A stretch of 38,991 nt of DNA, taken from contig CAMNAD010000001.1 in assembly GCA_946530505.1 (NCBI GenBank), forward strand, positions 1 through 38,991. Direction: 5' to 3'. Within the stretch, counting starts at the first letter, position 1. The number at the start of each line of letters is the position of its first letter. Under the pieces are notes generated by a model. That model worked only from the letters and a program-made list of their open reading frames with translations. It ran no database searches and was not told where the DNA came from. Shown piece after piece: positions 4,915 to 30,703 of this stretch. The stretch is from an uncultured Bacteroidales bacterium. GTDB taxonomy: Bacteria > Bacteroidota > Bacteroidia > Bacteroidales > UBA932. The position numbers and the translations under genes are program-made.

Positions 4915-5841
4915 TTAATGCAAATTTTTGATTTTTGAGGCCACTTCTTCGAGCAGCCACTTGGGAGTAGATGTCGCCCCGCACACTCCTATGTTATCTT
5001 CCGGACGAAACCATTCGGAATCCAGCCCGGAGGCATCCACAATGCAGAATGTCCGTGCGTTTTCCCTCTTGCAGAGTTCGGAAAGCACTTTCCCGTTTGA
5101 ACTCTCGCGGCCGGATACAAAAACAACGGCATCATGGCTGCGGGCAAACTCTGCAAGCTCCCTATGACGGGATGCCACCTGTCTGCAGATGGTATTGTGA
5201 ACGGAAAGCAAGTCAGGGGACGACATGTTCTGCCCGAGTATCCTGCATATCTGCTCGTACTCCACAGGGCTTTTTGTTGTCTGCGAGAATATGTCGATAT
5301 GCCGGGACGGGTCGATGCGGCCGTTCGAAAGCGCTTCAGCCAACTGGGCGGAATTCTCTATCACCACGGCCTTCCCGTCCACCTGTCCGACAAGTCCAAG
5401 CACTTCTGCATGGCCGATTTTGCCGAATATCACGATCTGTCCTTCGGGCGCATTGCGCTTGGCCGCTTCGCGTATGCTCTTCTGGATGTTCAGCACCACC
5501 GGGCAGGTGAAATCCACAACATTGAACCCCCTTTCGCGTGCCTGGGCGTAGGTCTGCGGCGGCTCCCCATGGGCCCGTATCAGAAGTGTCTTTTGCGCGG
5601 AGACCGGCGCTTTTCCGGCTGAGCCTTTTTTTGGCGAAGACGGGAATGACGCCGGCGCAGCGCCAAGAGAGGTCAAGGTTACAAGCCCTTTGGCGTGCAG
5701 ACGCGCCAACTCGGCTTCGTTGTGGACTATGGCACCGAGAGAATACAGGCAGCCGTTTTCGGCAAGGAGCTTCTCCGCGCCCTCGATGGCACGGATAACA
5801 CCCCCGCAAAAGCCGGAATTACCGTCGATCTCTACCGTCAT
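4915..5841 (-). CDS. ispH: 4-hydroxy-3-methylbut-2-enyl diphosphate reductase
   Basis: GFCGGV, IVHN, RAHG, TCPVV, SQTT, TICRQV, SSN and GATSTP motifs, with three Fe-S cysteines. Carries an extra low-complexity segment before LLIRAHG. Confidence 0.96.
   Translation of the reverse strand: MTVEIDGNSGFCGGVIRAIEGAEKLLAENGCLYSLGAIVHNEAELARLHAKGLVTLTSLGAAPASFPSSPKKGSAGKAPVSAQKTLLIRAHGEPPQTYAQARERGFNVVDFTCPVVLNIQKSIREAAKRNAPEGQIVIFGKIGHAEVLGLVGQVDGKAVVIENSAQLAEALSNGRIDPSRHIDIFSQTTKSPVEYEQICRILGQNMSSPDLLSVHNTICRQVASRHRELAEFARSHDAVVFVSGRESSNGKVLSELCKRENARTFCIVDASGLDSEWFRPEDNIGVCGATSTPKWLLEEVASKIKNLH
5589..5668. repeat. Imperfect palindrome in frame within ispH
   Basis: Nested inverted repeats CCGGCG(5604-09)/CGCCGG(5650-55), TTTTCCG(5611-17)/CGGGAA(5641-46) and GCC/GGC around a T7 loop. 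Coincides with the peptide GAAPASFPSSPKKGSAGKAPVSAQK. Confidence 0.55.
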
Positions 5842-8484: not shown

Positions 8485-10176
8485 CTAATTTGCATCAAGG
8501 CCCAGATCCTTAACAAGATTCAGTACCTCGGGGTTGGTATTCATCAATTCTTGTGCCTTTTCTGCAGGCATATACACTTTAGGTGCCGATTCTTCGGCCG
8601 GTTTCACTGTCACGAACAGGTGAACCCTGCCATTGCCGAGTATCCTCGCAAAACTTGTCTCCATGGTACGGAGCAGCCCGTTTTCGATCCAGTTCTTCTG
8701 TGCCTCATTGGTAACCTCGAATTTGACGTTCTTGAATCCGTCTTCTTCGCTGAAAGAGAGAGACGCACTGTTCAAGGCATACTCCAGCCTGGGCTTCCCC
8801 TTGGCACACTCAGAGACAAGTGCAGGCCACTTCGCCCGGATTTCGTCATCCGTGGGGATTTTATGTTCAGAATCTGCGGAAAGCCCCTTCTGAGCAGGTT
8901 CCGCAACAGGGGTTTCCGTATCTTCCTCTCCGGAAAGGAGGCCGGACATCACCTTCCTTGCACGGCTGCCGCGCTTTGGAGCCGCTTCTTCAGCAGGTGC
9001 CGTGGCTGTGACGTCTTGCTGTGCGGGAGCTGCGGTCTTGACCGGAGCGGCGGCAGGCTTCGCAACATCTTTGCCTTCGGGTACGCCGCCAAGGAATGCC
9101 AGTTTCATAAGGGCATATTCGATGTGCAGGCGCTGGTTGGTGCTGGACTTATACCCTGCCTCGCAAGCAGTCGTAATGCCAAGGGAATCATAAATATACT
9201 GGATGGTACAGCGCCCTGCCTGCTCACGATAGCGTCCCTTGAGCGACTCCGGCAGGTCGAGCAATGAGTCCAGTCCTCCGGTACGCGCAACAAGCAGATT
9301 GCGGAAGTGTTCCCCTAGCGCCGACACGAAATGCAGAGCATTGAAGCCCTTGGAAAGGATATCGTCAAATTCCAGAAGCGCGTGGGCATAATCCTTGGAC
9401 AGGAAGAAATCCACAAGCCTGAAAGTATAGTCGTAGTCCAGTACACCAAGATTGCGGATCACATCTGCATAATGGATGTCATTGCCGCAGAAAGCGACAG
9501 TCTGGTCGAAAATTGTAAGTGCATCGCGCATGGCGCCGTCCGCCTTCTGGGCAATCACGTGCAGGGACTCATCATCCACCTTCACTCCCTCCTTGTCCGC
9601 AATCCCACGGAGGTTCCGAACCATATCGGAGATGCCGATACGGTTGAAATCGTAAGTCTGGCAGCGAGAGAGAATTGTAGGGAGAACCTTGTGCTTTTCG
9701 GTCGTACAGAGAATGAAAATGGCATATGACGGCGGTTCTTCCAAGGTCTTGAGAAATGCATTGAAAGCGGCCTGGCTGAGCATGTGGACCTCGTCGATGA
9801 TATACACGCTGTAGTTGCCGACCTGCGGAGGTATCTGCACCTTTTCCATCAAGGTCTTGATATCCTCGACACTGTTGTTGGAAGCGGCATCGAGTTCGTA
9901 GATGCAGTAAGAGCGCCCTTCGGCGAAAGAAACGCAAGACTCGCACTCCCCGCACGGTTCCATATTGTCGGAAGGATGCAGGCAGTTGATCGTTTTGGCA
10001 AATATACGCGCCGTACTGGTCTTGCCTACTCCGCGAGGACCGCAGAAGAGATAGGCGTGGGCCAGCTGGCCGCGGAGAATCGAATTCTTCAGCGTCCTGG
10101 CTATGTTGTCCTGTCCGATAAGGGTTTCAAATGAATCCGGACGGTACTTGCGTGCAGATACTATATACTCACTCAT
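8485..10176 (-). CDS. dnaX: DNA polymerase III subunit gamma/tau
   Basis: ARKYRP, GPRGVGKT, Zn-binding cysteines, IIDEVHML, SRC motif. An Ala/Pro-rich linker precedes the C-terminal domain. Confidence 0.97.
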   Translation of the reverse strand: MSEYIVSARKYRPDSFETLIGQDNIARTLKNSILRGQLAHAYLFCGPRGVGKTSTARIFAKTINCLHPSDNMEPCGECESCVSFAEGRSYCIYELDAASNNSVEDIKTLMEKVQIPPQVGNYSVYIIDEVHMLSQAAFNAFLKTLEEPPSYAIFILCTTEKHKVLPTILSRCQTYDFNRIGISDMVRNLRGIADKEGVKVDDESLHVIAQKADGAMRDALTIFDQTVAFCGNDIHYADVIRNLGVLDYDYTFRLVDFFLSKDYAHALLEFDDILSKGFNALHFVSALGEHFRNLLVARTGGLDSLLDLPESLKGRYREQAGRCTIQYIYDSLGITTACEAGYKSSTNQRLHIEYALMKLAFLGGVPEGKDVAKPAAAPVKTAAPAQQDVTATAPAEEAAPKRGSRARKVMSGLLSGEEDTETPVAEPAQKGLSADSEHKIPTDDEIRAKWPALVSECAKGKPRLEYALNSASLSFSEEDGFKNVKFEVTNEAQKNWIENGLLRTMETSFARILGNGRVHLFVTVKPAEESAPKVYMPAEKAQELMNTNPEVLNLVKDLGLDAN

Positions 10177-12940: not shown

Positions 12941-14364
12941 TCTGCGGCAAATATAGCAAAAGTCCGGGCAGGAAGAATGAAATCCTGCCTGTCGGAGGCG
13001 GGGGCGGGCCGCTTCTCAAGTTTGTCGGAATAGAACTGCAGGCTGTAGCCGCTGCATTCCTCAGGGAGTTTCAAGCTGATTTTCCTGTCCTTGTCTCCGA
13101 AGTTCACCATCGCCACCGAATAGCTGCCGTCCGGGGTCCTTGCAGCCGTCGCGGCAACGCCTTCGGGAAGGGACTCCCCAATGCGCAGTATCTCGCTTCC
13201 CGAGGGGAAATTGCGGCACATCAGACTCCAGCTGTAATACCACGGGCGGATTTCCTCCTGGGAAGGATCCCCGAACACTTCACTTCCGAGTATGTTCCAC
13301 ATACCCCAGAGCTTGATATCCTCGGTCTTTCCCGAATCTCCGGAGGAATGCATGGCATCGTCCAGCATCCAGGCAGCTGCGCCGGAAAAGCCGGAATTCA
13401 TCACGCTGATCAGCAGCAGCGGCATGTCGAGGGCGTAGAAACTGTCGTATACCAGCATGTTGCAGTCGGAGCCCCTGGTAAAGGGATGCCCTTCCACACG
13501 GCGCCAGTATTCTGCGGCCAGGGCGGAATCCGCGGGGTCGGAGAAATACTTGAACCCGGCTTCTCCGAGTATTATGGGCTTGTCCACCAAGGCCTTGAGT
13601 TCCTTGAGCCGGGCACAGAACTCTCCGCTCCTCACATATCTCTGTCCCGGATAGGCGTGCATGTCGTAGATGCCCACCTCAGGCACACTTTCCACAGTTG
13701 CTTCCAGCCATCCGGCATAGTCATATTCGGAGTCGGGATTGCTGTAGTCTATCACCGCATCCGGGCCGGCGATGTCCACCTTGTCCTTCAGGCCGGCATA
13801 CTTGTCCATTTCGGCGCGGAATTCCTTCACCATCTTCTTCCAGAAGGCGAAGTCTCCGTTCGTGGAGGCCCAGTTTCCGTCGGGCTCATTGAAAATCACG
13901 AAATGCCTGATGCAGTCGAAGCCATTCCCGTTGACCAGCCAGTCAAGATGTTTCACCGAAGCCTTCACCCAGGCTTCGGAGCCTTTCATATCCCAGGACG
14001 GAGGATTGTATTCACCATAGACGACCATCACTCCACGGCTCTGGCAGTATTGCAGCAGCTTCTTCAGGCCGTCCGAATTGCGTCCGATATCAAAGCCTTT
14101 GCCGTCGTAGTAGGTGAAGGGGCTGTTGATCATGCAGCGCACATACTGCGGACGCATGTAGTCCAGGCGCTCGTAGAGTGTGTTCCAGTCAGCGTCCGAG
14201 AGCGGGCTGCCCCAGGAGAGCGCCTCATCGTATGGGTCCCATTCTATCCCGTTTCCGAGATAGCAGGGATTGATGACATCTCCGGTAACCGTGACACGGG
14301 TGATATCGGTGCAGGAAACGGCGGCCATTGTCAGACAGGCGATAAAAACGGACAGTCTTTTCAT
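12937..14364 (-). CDS. Clan GH-A glycoside hydrolase lipoprotein (GH5/GH30-like, family uncertain)
   Basis: Lipobox AVSC, FNEPD acid/base, DMHAY, ILGEAG nucleophile, AAWMLDD and a beta-rich C-terminal domain. Confidence 0.8.
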   Translation of the reverse strand: MKRLSVFIACLTMAAVSCTDITRVTVTGDVINPCYLGNGIEWDPYDEALSWGSPLSDADWNTLYERLDYMRPQYVRCMINSPFTYYDGKGFDIGRNSDGLKKLLQYCQSRGVMVVYGEYNPPSWDMKGSEAWVKASVKHLDWLVNGNGFDCIRHFVIFNEPDGNWASTNGDFAFWKKMVKEFRAEMDKYAGLKDKVDIAGPDAVIDYSNPDSEYDYAGWLEATVESVPEVGIYDMHAYPGQRYVRSGEFCARLKELKALVDKPIILGEAGFKYFSDPADSALAAEYWRRVEGHPFTRGSDCNMLVYDSFYALDMPLLLISVMNSGFSGAAAWMLDDAMHSSGDSGKTEDIKLWGMWNILGSEVFGDPSQEEIRPWYYSWSLMCRNFPSGSEILRIGESLPEGVAATAARTPDGSYSVAMVNFGDKDRKISLKLPEECSGYSLQFYSDKLEKRPAPASDRQDFILPARTFAIFAAE

Positions 14365-15530
14365 TTTACGGATATGTTTTCGGCTGGGACGTACATGTCG
14401 GGAAGATCATTGCAGAAGAATGTGTCCGAACGCTCATACATGGTTTTGAACGAATTCTCGGACACGTGTCCCGGGAAGACCGAGAAATAGTGGCTGCCCT
14501 GTTCCATGGGGTCGTATTTGTTGCGCCATGTAACCAGCAGGCTCATCTTGCGGTTCGCCATGGGAGCCGCTATGTTGGTGGTCCAGTAATCTTCCTGTTT
14601 GAAACCTTCCACTCCGGTTTCGGTGACGCCGGCAGGTTTCATCTTGCCGGAGGACAACTTGCCGAGCACCTTGAGATTGTTCACGAAAACATTGTTGTTG
14701 ATGCCCTGATAACAGTCCATCCCTATGAAATCGACATATTCATCTCCCGGCCAGCGGAAGAGGAAATCGGATTCGGTCCTGGCCTTGTCCATCTGGGGAG
14801 AGATCGCATAGATGAAACTGTGCACTCCGGAAGCCTTCATGTAGTTCACGAAATACTGCCAGAGTTCCTTGAATTCCTTTTCGGTCGTGCAGGAGGATCC
14901 CCACCAGCTCCATTCCTGGGTATGCTCGTGGAACGGCCGGATTATTATGGGGATATTCTTGCCGTCGGCTCCTTTCAGGTTGACCGCAAGCCTTGCAAGA
15001 CGGTCCAGCCAGGAATTGAACTTGGTCCTGACGGCGCTGCCCTCCTTGAGTATTTCGGCGACCACCTGCCTGTTCGAGTTGTCCCAGGCATCTCCGCCGG
15101 TCAGAGGGTTGTTCAGGTGCATACAGGCGATAATCACCATTCCGCGATTATAGGCATCCTTCATGCACCTTATCCGGAGAGCGTTGTCATCGAGTTCGGT
15201 CTCGGCTCTCTCGTCCATGAATGAAGCCAGGTCCAGGGCATAAACTGCAGGATAATCCCCGCATACAGCCTTGGTGTCCGAAGCTCCCTGTTCGCCATAC
15301 CATTTGCGGCCATACATCAAATCGTCGTGATGGCCGAACATCCAGCCCTTGTCCCTGATAGCCCAGAGATTCGAATAAAGGGCCTTGGTTTCGGCGGTGG
15401 CGGAAGGATCGGCCATGCTCAGCACCACTTCCCCGGCTTCCGCAGGTTCTTCTTTGCCGCTTTCCGGTTTGCTGCAGCTCAGCAACAGGGGTGCCGCCAT
15501 CAGGGCGGCGATAACTAAACTCTTCATCAT
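14361..15530 (-). CDS. GH26 beta-mannanase lipoprotein
   Basis: Lipobox LLSC, FGHHDDLMYG, RPFHE acid/base, WSWWG, GMDCY, VTETG nucleophile, TWRN. Confidence 0.93.
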   Translation of the reverse strand: MMKSLVIAALMAAPLLLSCSKPESGKEEPAEAGEVVLSMADPSATAETKALYSNLWAIRDKGWMFGHHDDLMYGRKWYGEQGASDTKAVCGDYPAVYALDLASFMDERAETELDDNALRIRCMKDAYNRGMVIIACMHLNNPLTGGDAWDNSNRQVVAEILKEGSAVRTKFNSWLDRLARLAVNLKGADGKNIPIIIRPFHEHTQEWSWWGSSCTTEKEFKELWQYFVNYMKASGVHSFIYAISPQMDKARTESDFLFRWPGDEYVDFIGMDCYQGINNNVFVNNLKVLGKLSSGKMKPAGVTETGVEGFKQEDYWTTNIAAPMANRKMSLLVTWRNKYDPMEQGSHYFSVFPGHVSENSFKTMYERSDTFFCNDLPDMYVPAENISVK

Positions 15531-16702
15531 TCAACTGTTATGTTTTCCGCCATGACGTACATGTCAGGCAGGTCTTCGCAGAAAAAGGTGTCCGGACGGG
15601 AATACATTTCCCTGAAAGATCCCTCCGACGGATGCCCGGGGAATACCGAAAAGTAGTTCCTGTCCTGTCCCATCGGAGAGTATTCATTCGTCCATGTAAC
15701 CAGCATGCTCATCTTGCGGTTCGCCATGGGAGCCGCTATGTTCTTTATCCAGTAATCCTCTGCGGAAAAATGCTCTACGCCGATTTCTGTCACGCCGGCA
15801 GGCTTGAGCTTTTCTTCGGACACCTTCTTCAGGAGTTTGAGGTTGTTCAGGAATTTATTGTTGTTCAGTCCCACATAGCAATCCATTCCCATGAAATCGA
15901 CGTAATCGTCCCCGGGCCAACGGTAGGTAAAGTCCGATTCCGTCTGCTCGGAGTTCATGGCGGGAGAAGAGGCATAGATGAAATTATGCACTCCCCTGGC
16001 AATCATTCCGTCCACCAGATACCGCCATAAAGCCACGTATTCAGCAGCCGTCGTACAGGAACGTCCCCACCAGCTCCACTCATGGCCATGTTCGTGGAAA
16101 GGACGCAGGATTATGGGGATCTGCACCCCGTCGCCGCCTTTCAGGCTCCGCGAAAGCGCGGCCAGATTGTCCAGCCAGCTGTCGAACAGGATATTGGTTT
16201 CACTGCCCTTTTCGAGGATGGAAGCGGCCACCTTGTTGCTGGAGTTGTCCCAGGCATCGCCCCCGGTAAGAGGGTTGTTCAGATGAAGGCAGGCCATCAC
16301 CACCATTCCGCGGTCGTAGGCTTCCTTTATCGTACGGCGTTTCACCGGATTTTCCAGAGTATCCTGGAAAGCCGCCTTGCGCCCGTCCATGAACGAGGCT
16401 ACGTCAACGGCGAAAACCGCAGGATAATCCCCGCACACCGCCCTGGTGTCGGATCCGCCCTCCTCATATTCCCAGTTCCTGCCACAGACCAGGTCGCTCT
16501 GATGCCCGAACATCCACCCTTTCTCCCGGATGGCCCACAGGTTGGAATACAGGGCCTTGGTCTCAGGGGTCGCTTCGGGATCGACCAGCTTCAGGACTGT
16601 CGTTTCCACTTCGTTGTCATCCTTCTCCGCAGGCCCATCCCCCTTGCAGGAAAAGCAAAGAGGGATGGCTGCGAGAAGAATCGGTATCAGGTAACGCTTC
16701 AT
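15527..16702 (-). CDS. GH26 beta-mannanase-like lipoprotein (paralogue)
   Basis: Lipobox CFSC, RPFHE, WSWWG, GMDCY, VTEIG. Colinear with the neighbouring GH26. Confidence 0.92.
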   Translation of the reverse strand: MKRYLIPILLAAIPLCFSCKGDGPAEKDDNEVETTVLKLVDPEATPETKALYSNLWAIREKGWMFGHQSDLVCGRNWEYEEGGSDTRAVCGDYPAVFAVDVASFMDGRKAAFQDTLENPVKRRTIKEAYDRGMVVMACLHLNNPLTGGDAWDNSSNKVAASILEKGSETNILFDSWLDNLAALSRSLKGGDGVQIPIILRPFHEHGHEWSWWGRSCTTAAEYVALWRYLVDGMIARGVHNFIYASSPAMNSEQTESDFTYRWPGDDYVDFMGMDCYVGLNNNKFLNNLKLLKKVSEEKLKPAGVTEIGVEHFSAEDYWIKNIAAPMANRKMSMLVTWTNEYSPMGQDRNYFSVFPGHPSEGSFREMYSRPDTFFCEDLPDMYVMAENITVE

Positions 16703-25655: not shown

Positions 25656-26501
25656 ATGAAAAGCATACAAGAGGAAATAACGCCCGTCGAAAGCGACGAC
25701 CTGTATGTAGTCCTGGACCACATAAACGCCAAGTTCGACTACCCTATCCATTGCCACGAAGAATACGAGATAAATCTTATTCTCCATTCCGACGGCACAC
25801 ACATTATCGGGACACGCCAGGAGGCGTTTTATGGCATGGATCTGATAGTTATCACCCCTTTCGTGCCCCATGTATGGAAGGCGCGGGAAGAGGGGAACCG
25901 CGTCATAACCATCCAATTCTCCGGGAAAATGCTGGAATTCCCCATGATAAGGCTGAAACAGTTCCGCAAAATAGAATCATTCCTCAAAAATATCGTTCCG
26001 GCAGCAAAGTATCATCTTTCCGAATCGGACCCTCTGGTGCAGGAAACCCTTGCGCTTGCAAATGCAAAAGGCTTCGACGCTACCCTGGCCTTCCTGCATC
26101 TGCTTAACTCCATGGCGGAAAGGGAATTCTCGGTGCTGGGAGATTCCGACTCAGGCATCAGGGCGTCCCGTTCTCGCAGGATAGCCAAGGTCATGGACTG
26201 GTCCAGGAAGCACCTTGGCGAAACCATCCGGCTCTCGGAAGTCGCATCGCTCGTAGACATGTCCGAATCGGCTTTCTCGCATTTCTTCAAGAAACACACA
26301 AACCTTTCCTATATCAGCTACCTCAACGGACTGCGGATCTCCAGGGCCTGCCGCGAACTTGAATCCAGTGCCATGAGCGTCAGTGAAATCTGCTGGAACT
26401 GCGGCTTCAACAACAAGTCCAACTTCAACAGAAAATTCCTGCAGGCAAAGGGCATGACCCCTACTGCCTACAGGAAATACATCTCCGAGATTCTGATCTA
26501 G
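25656..26501 (+). CDS. AraC family transcriptional regulator (cupin + double HTH)
   Basis: [13 protein letters not shown] cupin motif; [12 protein letters not shown] and [24 protein letters not shown] motifs. Divergent from the PUL operon. Confidence 0.95.
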
Positions 26502-28729
26502 CCTACCTGGGCTCCGTTGACCACGACTTCCTGCGGAGTTATGAAGCGCATCTTCCCGTCGTTCTGCTTGGCCATGAGAATCATGCCCTTGCTCTCGATC
26601 CCCTTGATGGTGCGGGGCTTGAGATTGGCGAGGATGCAGACCTGCTTTCCGAGCATATCTTCGGGGCTGTAGTATTCGGCGATGCCGGAGACGATAACGC
26701 GCTTGTCGATGCCGGTGTCTATGGTAAGCTTGAGCAGTTTGTCGGTCTTGGGCACACGCTCCGCCTCAAGGACAGTCGCGGTGCGGATGTCCATCTTCTC
26801 GAAGTCCTCGAAACTGCATTCTTCCTTCTGCGGAGTCACCTGCTTCGCAAGCTCGGCCTTTGCCTCCGCCTCTTTCTGCGCCCGAATTGCAGCCAAACGG
26901 TCCAATTGCTTCTGGATGGCTTCGTCTTCGATCTTCGCGAACAGCAGTTCGGCCTCACCCAACTGATGCCCTTCCGGCAGAATATCGGCTGTACCCAGTT
27001 GTTCCCAGCCAACGACTGGCGCATCAGCTTCCGGACCGTCAATGGCGGCCACGGAAGTTTTTTGAGCGGGCTCGAGCGTGGCGGTAGCGGAGTGGCCGCC
27101 ATTGCCGGGCGCGTCAGCCTTCGGAAAAGCAATGCCGGGACCGGGCTCCCCTTGCGGGACACGGCCCGGCCCTTTGCTTTTCGCGGAGGGCTTAATGTTC
27201 AGCATTTTACGCAGGCGCTCGCAGGCAAATGGTGTAAACGGCTCGAAAGCGATGGCAAGATCCGCGCAGAGCTGCAGGCATACGTTCAGTATGGTGCCAG
27301 TACGCGCCAGATCCGTCTTCGCAAGCTTCCACGGCTCGCTGTCGGAAATGTACTTGTTGCCAAGGCGCGCAATCTGCATCGCATCCTTGAGCGCCTCGCG
27401 GAAACGGTAGTTTTCGATATTCTTCTCTATACTCTCGCGCAGCGCCGGAACCTCGGCAAGAGTCTCCCGGTCCACATCGGTCAACTCTCCCGCAGCAGGC
27501 ACACGCCCCTCGAAATATTTGTGAGTCAGCACCACAGCACGGTTTACGAAATTACCGAAAATGGCTACCAGCTCGGAATTGTTGCGGGTCTGGAACTCTT
27601 TCCAGGAGAAGTCGTTATCCTTGGTCTCAGGAGCATTGGCGGTGAGCACATAACGCAGCACATCCTCCTTGCCAGGGAAATCCTGCACATACTCGTGCGC
27701 CCAGACGGCCCAGCCGCGGGAGGTGGAAATCTTGTCGCCCTCGAGATTCAGGAACTCGTTGGCAGGCACGTTATCCGGAAGGATGAATCCGTCGCCATAG
27801 GCCTTGAGCATAGAAGGGAACACTATGCAGTGGAACACGATATTGTCCTTGCCTATGAAATGCACCAGCTTGGTGTCGGGGCTCTTCCACCACTTCTCCC
27901 AGTCATTCGGCAGGAGCTCGATGGTATTGGAGATATAGCCGATGGGGGCATCGAACCATACGTAGAGCACCTTCCCCTCGGCACCTTCCACGGGCACGGG
28001 GACGCCCCAGTCGAGGTCGCGGGTGACGGCACGGGGCTGCAGGCCGCCGTCCAGCCAGCTCTTCACCTGGCCGTAAACATTGGAACGCCATTCCTTGTGG
28101 CCTTCCAGTATCCATTCACGAAGCCAGGGCTCGTAGTCCTGCAGTGGAAGATACCAGTGGGTAGTCTTTTTCTTTATCGGTTCCGCACCGCTGAGTTTGG
28201 AATGAGGGTTGATGAGTTCTTCGGGACTTAGGGTAGACCCGCACTTCTCGCACTGGTCGCCGTAGGCATTCTCGTTGCCGCACTTGGGGCAGGTCCCCAC
28301 GATGTATCGGTCGGCAAGGAAGGTCTTTGCCTCCGGGTCGTAGTACTGCTCACTTTCCCGGGTGACGAACTTGCCCTCGTCGTAGAGTTTGCGGAAGAAC
28401 TGCGAAGCATTCTTCTCGTGAATCTTCGACGAAGTGCGGCCATAGATGTCGAAATTGATGCCCAGGGCCTTGAAACTGTCGCTGATTATACTGTGATACT
28501 TGTCCACAATATCCTGGGGGGAGCAGCCCTGCTGGCGCGCCTTGATGGTGATGGGCACGCCGTGCTCGTCGCTGCCGCACACATACAGCACATCCTCTCC
28601 GCGAAGACGGAGATATCTCACATAAATATCTGCCGGCACATATACTCCGGCAAGATGCCCGATATGCACCGGGCCATTGGCATAAGGCAACGCACAGGTC
28701 ACCAGGGTTCTCTTGAACTTCTTTTCCAT
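26498..28729 (-). CDS. metG: Methionine--tRNA ligase with C-terminal tRNA-binding domain and a large internal insertion
   Basis: [12 protein letters not shown], Zn knuckles, YVWFDA, KISTS and a C-terminal OB domain. A 62-aa stretch lies between LRKMLNI and WEQLG. Confidence 0.98.
27040..27104. repeat. 65-bp palindromic element in frame in metG (element A)
   Basis: Perfect 13-bp inverted repeat CAATGGCGGCCAC (27040-52) / GTGGCCGCCATTG (27092-104) around a 39-nt loop GGAAGTTTTTT...GCGGA. Confidence 0.9.
27116..27192. repeat. 77-bp nested palindromic element in frame in metG (element B)
   Basis: Nested pairs AGCC/GGCT, GAAAAGCAA(27124-32)/TTGCTTTTC(27174-82), CCGGGC/GCCCGG and TCCC/GGGA. GGA and GCGGA lie just inside the outer arms. 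Confidence 0.85.
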
Positions 28730-28735
28730 ATATAG

Positions 28736-30703
28736 TTAATCTTCTTTTTTCAGACTGTCTTTCAATTTCTTCTGGCGCTTCCGCAATTTGATCATTTCCT
28801 GCATCAGGGCCATTTCTTCTTCTCCGGAAGTACCGGAAAGCGCCTTGCGTATTTCCTCGAGGCGCGATGCCACCCGGCGCTCGGCAAGCGTGAGCATTGC
28901 GCGGGGGACGTATGCCACCAGCCAGGACTGTTCCGAGGTCAGGGAACTCTCCAGACGCTTCACGGATAACTGATAGGGGCGGGTGGAAAACTCTCCCGCA
29001 ATCTCGGCAAGCGTGCGGTCGGGAGAGTCAAGGAGGGTGCGGACAATCTCGTCCTGATCTTTGCCTTCGTCGTAAAGATCCAGATATGCATCATATACGC
29101 GGCGGTATCCGTTGTTTGCCAGGGGCTGTCCGGTAGATTCTATGGCAGACGCAATGAAGCCGGCTACAGTGTCGACCGCCTCAGGGTCGTAATACGGAGA
29201 GTCCGTCTCGAAGTGCAGTTCTTCGCATCCGTGCTGCAGCAGGAAGGTCAGAATATCGCCCTCCACCGCCGCAAGGATACGGTTCTCCGGAGTGTATCTG
29301 GCCGATGCCGATGGAGCAGAGTCCCCCTCTGGAGCATTTTCCCGTATAGGGTTGCGAAGCAACGCGGAAGAGGGGGACTCGCGCTCACGGCGCTCATCTT
29401 CCAGAAGGCGGTCGCGGGTGGTTTTCACACGGGTGAAAAGGATGTCCGGCGCCACGTCGAATTTCTCGGCGGCAGTGTTCACATAAACAGAGCGCTTTAC
29501 CGCATCAGGTATCCGGGCGATGGTGTCCGCTATGTCGTTTACGAAATTCGCCTTCTTGAGAGGATTCCCGGCGGCTTCCCCGAGGAGGATGTCCGACTTG
29601 AAATCGAGGAAATCCTTTGCATTCTCCCGAATATAGTCCTGCACTTCCTCCAGGCTCCTGCCCTTGCTGAACGAATCAGGGTCCTCCCCTTCCGGAAGAA
29701 GCACCACGCGCACGTTCAGGCCTTCATACAAGATGAGGTCGATATCCTTCAGCGAAGCGTGGATGCCGGCGGAATCGCCGTCGTTCATCAGCAGCACATT
29801 CTCGGTGAACTTGTGTATCAGGCGGATCTGCTGCACCGTAAGCGCCGTTCCGCAGGGGGCCACCACATTGTGTATGCCCAGCTGCTGGAGCATCACATAG
29901 TCGATATTACCCTCGACGATAATACACTCATCCTGACGGGATATTTCGCTCTTGGCGAAATAGATGCCGAAGAGGATGTTGCTCTTGCGGTAGATTTCGG
30001 TATCGGGAGAGTTGACGTACTTTGCAGGATTGTCGGCCTTGAGAGTACGGCCGCTGAAGGCGATGGTACGTCCGCTCACCGACTGGATCGGGAACATCAC
30101 GCGTTCGCGGAACTTGTCGCCAAGGGTGCCGTCTTCCCGCTTTACCACCAGGCCTGCATCCAGCAGGTACTCTTCTTTGTATCCGGCTGCCTTAGCCGCC
30201 TGCAGGAGGGTATCCTTGCCGGACGGGGCCCATCCGAGTCCGAATTTCTCTATGGTTTCGTCTTCCAGACGGCGGGAATGGTAGTAGGCAAGGCCGACGT
30301 CCTTTCCTTCGCCGGACTTGAGCTGGTCAGCAAAGAACTTTTGGGCGAATTCACTCACGAGCATCAGGCTTTCGCTGCGCTGGCGGCTGGCGAGTTCTTC
30401 CGGAGATTCTTCCTCCTCGACAACCTCTATATTGTAGCGTTTCGCAATGTAGCGCAGGGCCTCCACGTAGGAATTATGCTCGTGCTCCATCAGGAAGCCA
30501 ACGGCCGAGCCAGACTTCCCGCATCCGAAACATTTGTAGATACCTTTCGACGGCGACACGTAGAAAGACGGGGTCTTCTCCTGATGGAAAGGACAGCAGG
30601 CCACATAGTTGGCCCCGCGGCGCTTCAGCGTCACGAAGTCCCCTATTATATCCTCTATCCGTACGGTATCCAGGATGAGGTCGACCGTTTCTTTAGGTAT
30701 CAT
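28736..30703 (-). CDS. dnaG: DNA primase
   Basis: CPFHQEKTPSF..CFGC Zn ribbon, RVMFPI, KYVNSP, VEGNID, DGDSAG TOPRIM, EDPD. Confidence 0.98.
   Translation of the reverse strand: MIPKETVDLILDTVRIEDIIGDFVTLKRRGANYVACCPFHQEKTPSFYVSPSKGIYKCFGCGKSGSAVGFLMEHEHNSYVEALRYIAKRYNIEVVEEEESPEELASRQRSESLMLVSEFAQKFFADQLKSGEGKDVGLAYYHSRRLEDETIEKFGLGWAPSGKDTLLQAAKAAGYKEEYLLDAGLVVKREDGTLGDKFRERVMFPIQSVSGRTIAFSGRTLKADNPAKYVNSPDTEIYRKSNILFGIYFAKSEISRQDECIIVEGNIDYVMLQQLGIHNVVAPCGTALTVQQIRLIHKFTENVLLMNDGDSAGIHASLKDIDLILYEGLNVRVVLLPEGEDPDSFSKGRSLEEVQDYIRENAKDFLDFKSDILLGEAAGNPLKKANFVNDIADTIARIPDAVKRSVYVNTAAEKFDVAPDILFTRVKTTRDRLLEDERRERESPSSALLRNPIRENAPEGDSAPSASARYTPENRILAAVEGDILTFLLQHGCEELHFETDSPYYDPEAVDTVAGFIASAIESTGQPLANNGYRRVYDAYLDLYDEGKDQDEIVRTLLDSPDRTLAEIAGEFSTRPYQLSVKRLESSLTSEQSWLVAYVPRAMLTLAERRVASRLEEIRKALSGTSGEEEMALMQEMIKLRKRQKKLKDSLKKED
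29319..29380. repeat. 62-bp palindromic element in frame in dnaG
   Basis: Perfect 12-bp inverted repeat GAGTCCCCCTCT (29319-30) / AGAGGGGGACTC (29369-80) around a 38-nt loop GGAGCATTTT...GCGGA. The loop contains the mini-hairpins CCC/GGG and GTTGC/GCAAC. Confidence 0.9.

Follow-up and report, generated by a model that had tools for sequence, protein, structure and literature searches.

Among described repeats, those closest to the elements treated here are palindromes that lie in frame inside intact genes. Rickettsia palindromic elements (RPEs) are characterised, in passages of PMC10969869 and PMC3733652, as palindromes of about 150 bp with a conserved peptide. For the spread and upkeep of such coding palindromes the sources cited here name no mobiliser. 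For Bacteroidetes, PMC6006769 describes Y1 genes with atypical structures on their flanks, further copies of which occur at other places in the genome (subclass 2.6). The present work concerns hairpin repeats in a stretch of 38,991 nucleotides from an uncultured Bacteroidales bacterium (assembly GCA_946530505.1, contig CAMNAD010000001.1, forward strand; hereafter the window). Three such repeats, of the families named A, B and D, lie in metG and dnaG (Table 1). The window is contig C1 of the metagenome-assembled genome (MAG) G000 (1.47 Mb, 68% complete); most comparisons were made with a close relative, G089 (2.15 Mb compared).

On sequence comparison the elements are almost certainly mobile, non-autonomous repeats. 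We favour a reading in which hairpin repeats of non-coding origin have come to lie in protein linkers, where they would be spread in trans by an HUH enzyme, reworked by template switching and tolerated by their hosts. Repeats of this kind are known. New here are a core that tracks the genome, arms made from host codons, the exchange of one family for another at a single site and proximity to Y1 genes.

Alleles, arms and loops of the repeats

An initial annotation, made from the letters of the window alone, had described three palindromes with unrelated arms and a common geometry. For A and D the description was accurate in coordinates, in arm length (13 and 12 bp), in loop length (39 and 38 nt) and in the GGA start and GCGGA end of both loops on the + strand; all three elements are indeed free of stop codons and in frame in metG and dnaG. 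The case of B is different. Taken as 27116-27192 it does read GGA...GCGGA, but these letters belong to a long conserved stem, with outer arms of only 4 bp, so that the architecture of B differs from that of A and D. B forms one long stem with imperfect pairing (the outer 9 bp pair 27174-27182 with 27124-27132; 3' tail, 27110-27123) and shares the TCCGC box with the other two. The D core contains two mini-hairpins, and the z-scores of the elements when folded as DNA range from -2.6 to -4.4.

Dispersed, non-autonomous DNA with co-varied stems and fixed junction boxes is real, but it comprises several families with different cores and not one. A, B and D are related multi-copy families, and E, F, H, I and J are further ones; G, at one shared site, is D minus 21 nt, and H, I and J have parts of the layout in common. 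Short-word BLAST, to which such repeats were expected to be invisible, recovers sister copies within each family though not between families, the sisters of each element having the same core and different arms. A descriptor scan of G000 (stem of at least 8 bp, TCCGC...TCC) returned four matches, two of them elements of the original observation, and none in each of five codon-block shuffles.

Alignment of orthologues revealed empty sites for metG, dnaG, metK, rsgA and ileS, and sites polymorphic for presence and absence. The annotation had named in advance two outcomes that would speak against a mobile family, no further copies above a shuffled background, and old, gradually diverged linkers with no such polymorphism; neither was observed. 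The B site of metG is filled in G000, G258, G288, G283 and G177, holds remnants in G089 and G291 and lacks the element in G282 and G185. A contig of sequencing run X4, identical to the window, contains element A, which is missing, in frame, from contigs of runs X3 and X5, where 95 nt are replaced by 5 (net 90 nt). Over some 200 nt the A-less contigs depart from the window by 0 and 2 letters, and the contigs of the three runs, which are short, are likely to come from the same species. A similar A-less form occurs in RNA run X13, whose contigs over B are no demonstration of transcription. At ileS the family itself is exchanged: B occupies the site in G000, G089, G177 and G283, and A in G258.

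Orientation is equally labile. The three window elements share one orientation relative to their host genes, as had been noted, but this is no rule, for elements flip at single sites. The D element of dnaG has the same orientation in G000, G210, G089 and G258 and is flipped in G288 and G283. The 127 distinct D contexts fall into 44 sites, and both orientations occur at 13 of the 30 sites with several members. At the 25 sites of G000 that have an orthologue in G089, the element was scored as the same at 7, flipped at 6, absent or decayed at 11 and changed from D to G at 1; one "same" (the second B, on C3) probably matched a neighbour, and one "absent or decayed" (C24) is a diverged B. Six of the roughly 13 sites filled in both genomes are flipped. 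Counts of sense and antisense copies in the two genomes together are 2/6 for A, 19/14 for B, 10/3 for D and 6/1 for G. In flips with perfect arms the core alone appears to have turned; where an arm carries an internal mismatch, the mismatch turns along with the core, which places the crossovers out in the arms. No consistent target-site duplication was seen by eye at the sites compared, which are old and reworked.

The relation between arms and core was quantified in the D family, to whose arms the covariation figures apply. Over their inner 8 bp these arms are Watson-Crick paired to 0.92 within a site vs 0.44 across sites (41 sites). Each arm position uses two to four pair types, and the non-pairs (5 G-T, 7 A-C, 13 other) show no G-U excess. 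The covariation of the D stems has the pattern of DNA-level copying. The border between the invariant ends of the core and the drifting arms is sharp. The second loop of the D core behaves in another way: it reads TGTAC in 8 of 9 elements of G089, GTTCC in 10 of 13 of G258 and TATAC in 3 of 5 of G000, while the arms are inherited. Pairs from the same genome but different sites match in loop 2 at 0.63, vs 0.37 when loops are permuted within sites (0 of 2000 permutations; 52 elements, 17 sites shared between genomes), and same-site pairs share the loop in 0.30. Arm identity is 0.66 for the same site (0.59 where the loop differs) and 0.44-0.46 otherwise. Stems, in these alignments, follow the site and the loop follows the genome, a statement that is strong for D loop 2 only. 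Since three-base loop differences at many sites are hard to obtain by parallel point mutation, the cores seem to have been converted or replaced genome-wide. Most first loops of D read G-N-A on the GGA strand, which we take to be a stable DNA mini-hairpin motif.

At two sites, metK and purM, the outer arms consist of host codons or of an inverted copy of them. The empty metK allele of G258 already forms an imperfect stem from the host codons for ADIR and PYLR; G089 keeps ADIR, and in G000 and G283 the stem is perfect and the Asp has become Gln. At the end of purM in G089, a site that is empty in G000, the right arm repeats the TVSI codons as their reverse complement and supplies both the purM stop and a purN start. 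By arm copying, then, a repeat has in clear natural cases altered host codons that are otherwise conserved (Asp to Gln in MetK) as well as the limits of genes (the stop of purM, a start for purN). That all arms are inverted target duplications was an early idea; the family consensus in the arms of A and D led to its rejection for these two, and it was kept for the outer arms of metK and purM. Beside a Y1 gene at L146:2443-2655 (on C91 in G000), an inverted duplicate of the final codons and stop of the adjacent gene gives one more arm of host origin; from its sequence we presume that this neighbour encodes fucose isomerase.

Hosts, range and neighbouring features

Family patterns matched 17 B, 5 D, 5 G, 2 A, 1 E and 3 F in G000 and 19 B, 9 D, 7 A, 2 G and 4 F in G089 (one F match of the latter, L347, looks spurious), that is 29 and 37 copies of A/B/D/G. 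By a codon model, 61 of these 66 copies lie in coding frames, a share close to the stop-to-stop background of 0.945, so the elements neither seek nor avoid genes. The hosts are not confined to essential genes, as had first appeared: MiaA, RsgA, IleRS, IF-2, UvrD-type helicases, MutL, TruA, purine and shikimate enzymes and tRNA ligases are joined by GH3, GH43 and GH88 glycoside hydrolases and by peptidases (of 36 host frames, which take in those of F, H and I, 29 have a Pfam match at 1e-20). Among the comparisons listed, intragenic length differences between G000 and G089 are multiples of three, and the three differences that are not involve the end of a gene or intergenic DNA.

In range the families seem limited to a single sub-clade of rumen Bacteroidales. 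The genus, which we take to be Cryptobacteroides, comprises more than 400 genomes (118 of 401 unscored in one genus-wide survey), and the A pattern was found in 5 of 401. The B pattern was found in four of five close relatives but not in any of the 150 other genomes sampled across the order. The D core was found, in exact form, at 55 loci in 13 assemblies of a species-level collection and at 64 metagenome loci; all records with this core are titled uncultured Bacteroidales or Bacteroidia, and the runs that contain the stretch are mostly rumen or gut samples from cattle and sheep. Viral contigs gave no match to the D, A and B patterns.

The MetG insert maps between residues 523 and 532 of the solved methionine-tRNA ligase 1RQG, in the loop after the anticodon-binding helices. 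It is predicted to be disordered, with a predicted local distance difference test score (pLDDT) below 50 at fragment residues 137-183 for a model mean of 82, the thin alignment there also lowering the score. In DnaG the TIGR01391 match spans residues 1-415 and the D insert sits beyond that region; where G000 has an orphan outer arm, the dnaG site of G089 retains perfect 23-bp arms. For annotation, such inserts explain odd proline- and glycine-rich linkers and are not to be read as domains.

Table 1. Hairpin repeats of the window, their host genes and related features
Feature	Position	Strand	Remarks
metG, methionine-tRNA ligase, host of B and A	26498..28729	-	intact 743-aa frame; NF001100, E 1e-258
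Whole MetG insert	27017..27193	-	about residues 513-571; order B, A, second B-like tail
Further, diverged B 3' tail behind A	27020..27033	-	from sequence
Family A element	27040..27104	-	perfect arms; conserved core 27053-27091
Family B element	27110..27192	-	TCCGC box 27183-27187, internal loop, inner stems
dnaG, DNA primase, host of D	28736..30703	-	intact 655-aa frame
Orphan outer arm of D in dnaG	29308..29318	-	partner gone via 30-nt in-frame deletion
Family D element in dnaG	29319..29380	-	perfect arms; conserved core 29331-29368
Family I in-frame hairpin in ispH	5604..5661	-	related hairpin; flipped in G089
Relic arms without core, dnaX linker	8878..8917	-	D at the site in G089, G258, G288

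Many other members of the genus carry an unrelated insert of about 30-45 aa in the same MetG loop (L002-L012, L043-L059), and short palindromes nested in that insert in two of them are, we assume, of the CGTC type. When the X3, X4 and X5 contigs were set against window positions 27050-27107, A cores were found repeated head to tail, the joint leading back 49 nt and the cores separated by 13-20 letters, which suggests tandem A arrays in other organisms. At the dnaX site, relatives carry D in both orientations. The family I pattern matches four times in G000 and seven times in G089, and ispH further contains a perfect 11-bp inverted repeat with a 68-nt loop (window 5068-5157). Family F has longer conserved cores and long site-specific arms, in frame (C9, C27, C39 and C112 in G000; L321, L326 and L292 in G089). 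Family H lies at C21:516-619 and C95:2231-2337 of G000, where G089 holds B, and once appears to be nested inside B. In one lineage, intergenic D copies (L092, L116, L222) that lie at separate places have arms that are almost the same, and they may represent a recent burst. Elsewhere, a susC/susD-like cluster of the window includes a tandem pair of paralogous genes (14361-16702; 1166 nt apart, with blocks 68-76% identical); we take them for glycoside hydrolases.

Spread, reworking and alternative explanations

The reading that we favour can be set out in four steps. A hairpin of 60-100 nt with a conserved core would be copied to new sites; mobility is apparent from the alleles, and an enzyme is presumed. 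Intragenic copies, to judge from the sequences, persist where they change the length by a multiple of three, their frame is open and they fall in loops or linkers. One arm would then act as template for the other, so that the stem stays paired while it drifts; flanking host codons may be drawn into the stem by the same process, and its inter-strand form may invert the centre. Finally, cores long held at distant sites would be replaced by, or converted to, the variant prevailing in the genome, a pattern seen for one D loop. Arms and flips probably arose by template switching or by recombination between short repeats: PMC8604942 and PMC5941160 report for template switching at short inverted repeats both arm homogenisation and, in the intermolecular form, spacer inversion. 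That the elements have no selected function appears very probable. Recognition by structure, which the annotation proposed, is something we infer.

No mobilising enzyme is encoded within the window, as already noted by the annotation, and no cognate enzyme was identified for A/B/D/G. Family searches covered carrier genomes that are incomplete MAGs, in which a blank means "not found" and not absence. DUF559 and TnpB were each found in none of five carrier genomes, and stand-alone GIY-YIG in none of five, a single protein of about 610 aa per genome being taken for UvrC. A reverse transcriptase was found in one of five and IS110 in two of five; tyrosine recombinases occur in 10 of 10 genomes tested. 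Open frames beside three non-coding D copies revealed no enzyme by eye. An origin of the cores in transfer origins found no support: matches in plasmid and phage collections were at chance level for A and B, and D had none in plasmids.

Y1 HUH-like genes number six in G000 and nine in G089 (two broken), and the hairpins on either side of most of them belong to other families, in part of the GTAG type. In G089, 5 of 37 elements lie within 3 kb of a Y1 gene vs 0.85 expected (P 0.003, random anchors); three other genomes have 3 elements near 14 Y1 genes, vs 0.5-0.7 expected. This proximity, the patchiness of the other enzyme families and the cited passages of PMC6006769 make a RAYT-like Y1 enzyme (RAYT, REP-associated tyrosine transposase; REP, repetitive extragenic palindrome) the preferred spreader, to which we would nevertheless give slightly less than an even chance. 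As observations in their own right, up to nine divergent Y1 HUH genes of about 300 aa occur per 2-Mb genome (L146-L165, L277, L315, L346, L348, L389); most have a flanking hairpin or tandem array family of their own, and several fall below the Pfam cut-off.

Several observations weigh against this picture. An HUH gene flanked by the motif, which the annotation had suggested looking for, did not turn up: no examined Y1 gene is directly flanked by an A/B/D/G core, the nearby elements lying in neighbouring genes. The proximity test was post hoc, some of its G000 matches share a locus with G089 matches, elements and Y1 genes could both simply favour housekeeping regions, and the elements also clump among themselves (9 of 37 vs about 3.5 expected). 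No insertion that is both clean and recent, with its target site still readable, turned up. The genome signal is weak in D loop 1 (71 of 2000) and nil in the first stem (813 of 2000); the genomes tested are kin, and the pair G258/m1 carries much of the loop-2 signal. The arms of D and of A show a family consensus, albeit a fuzzy one, which implies that most of their length is derived from the element and not from the host. Lastly, the spacer inversions by template switching reported in yeast are of 2-5 bp (parts of PMC8604942), vs 38-80 nt here.

It seems conceivable, although rather unlikely, that site-specific hairpins, built in part from host codons, are passed on vertically within housekeeping genes as docks and that short conserved cores are cut out, flipped, swapped between families and refreshed across the genome by a structure-reading HUH enzyme acting at a distance. 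If true, the mobile unit would be smaller than a REPIN (a hairpin-forming REP doublet) and would reversibly rewrite protein linkers. In a rival reading, to which we assign a still smaller chance, a structure-specific HUH enzyme would cut at the foot of the core and rejoin it, so that cores hop between resident docks in either orientation and flips, swaps and loop refreshment are one reaction. The sharp border between core ends and arms, the core-only flips inside perfect arms, the contrast between loop 2 and the arms, the alternation of A and B at ileS and the near-random orientation between genomes whose flanks are only about 85% alike all fit such a reaction. However, asymmetric arms flip with their core, so that breakpoints vary and lie out in the arms; a fixed cut leaves host codons turned into arms unexplained; and the locus of the cognate enzyme was not found.

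An old burst with no present mobiliser, followed by RecA-type ectopic conversion between cores and by recombination in the arms, we regard as improbable. It would account for the many sites common to the whole sub-clade and decaying (11 of 25 absent or decayed) and for the want of a flanked enzyme gene, and both the D arms, at 20-24 bp, and the 38-nt cores approach the minimum size for RecA. Yet a spreading step was needed to bring several families to about 50 sites or more, the outer arms used in B flips measure just 8-14 bp, the intergenic D copies with nearly identical arms look recently spread, and elements are enriched near Y1 genes.

There is very little to be said for a programmed switch in which an invertase produces two versions of a protein. 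The frame is open in both orientations at many sites, intragenic invertons have been reported in Bacteroides (passages of PMC10028968) and tyrosine recombinases are present throughout the genomes tested, but the arms have no sequence fixed between sites (identity 0.44), the inserts lie in linkers, the MetG one predicted to be disordered, empty alleles are common and no strand-changing joint occurs among the 15 joints listed out of 50 (short contigs, four runs). Equally far-fetched is a functional structured RNA, whether for mRNA stability, splicing or recoding: stable folds and extensive compensatory changes speak for it, but Rfam gave for 26500-30000 three matches, all far below the gathering score, G-U is not in excess over A-C, both strands are used even at one site, the A-less form of X13 is also found in DNA runs and is hence not a product of splicing, and the orientation flips largely refute such a role.

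Relation to known systems

A description of the A/B/D/G families in Bacteroidales was not found in the literature covered, which excludes subscription papers, figures and the supplements of the inverton preprint; the core words are absent from the text supplements of PMC6006769 and PMC3733652. Since the clade has a large number of genomes and shares sites by the dozen, with alleles that are empty, filled, flipped or swapped, the life cycle of these repeats becomes readable and candidate enzymes testable.

The likenesses and differences that follow refer to the portions of the cited sources that were consulted. With RPEs the elements share their nature as short, dispersed, multi-copy palindromes of several families, in frame in intact housekeeping genes, and, as far as those portions go, the lack of a known dedicated transposase. 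They differ in that only a core of 38-50 nt is conserved, the arms being site-specific (0.44 across sites) and several frames and both strands being used, and in that they flip and swap in place; on the fusion-protein feature of RPEs, what bears here is open frames and contigs of RNA runs, which may or may not correspond to protein. Intragenic REPs of the GTAG/CGTC type have hosts of the same kinds, namely UvrD/REP helicase, tRNA synthetases, TruA and TruB (PMC3733652). REPs are, however, mostly intergenic and GTAG/CGTC-tagged at the foot of the stem (PMC3733652), whereas 61 of 66 copies here lie in frames and carry TCCGC boxes; no conserved GTAG/GTGG or CGTC tag was present at the stem foot in 56 D contexts or in A contexts, and B tails are variable.

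Like the REPIN/RAYT system, the present one consists of non-autonomous long hairpins in genomes rich in Y1-HUH genes, with elements near those genes above chance. REPINs are nevertheless doublets of conserved REP arms, extragenic and flanking the RAYT gene (PMC3116915, PMC6006769), whereas in the present elements conservation lies in the loop and variation in the arms, and these cores flank none of the Y1 genes. Template-switch mutations resemble the reworking seen here in that, within coding DNA, they homogenise arms, change several bases of a codon stretch at once and invert spacers (PMC8604942, PMC5941160), but they are a mutational process and not an element, with reported inverted spacers of 2-5 bp vs 38-80 nt here. 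Invertons set a precedent in that inverted repeats lying within one gene bound a segment whose inversion recodes part of the protein (PMC10028968). They flip within populations and are presumed to be driven by an invertase, whereas the flips described here were seen between genomes and the elements have no fixed repeat sequence, their arms differing at every site. MITEs, miniature transposable elements with inverted repeats, differ as well, for the terminal inverted repeats are not conserved among the copies here. The elements thus work like RPEs and intragenic REPs, but on the features tested they belong neither to the RPEs nor to REPs/REPINs, MITEs or invertons.

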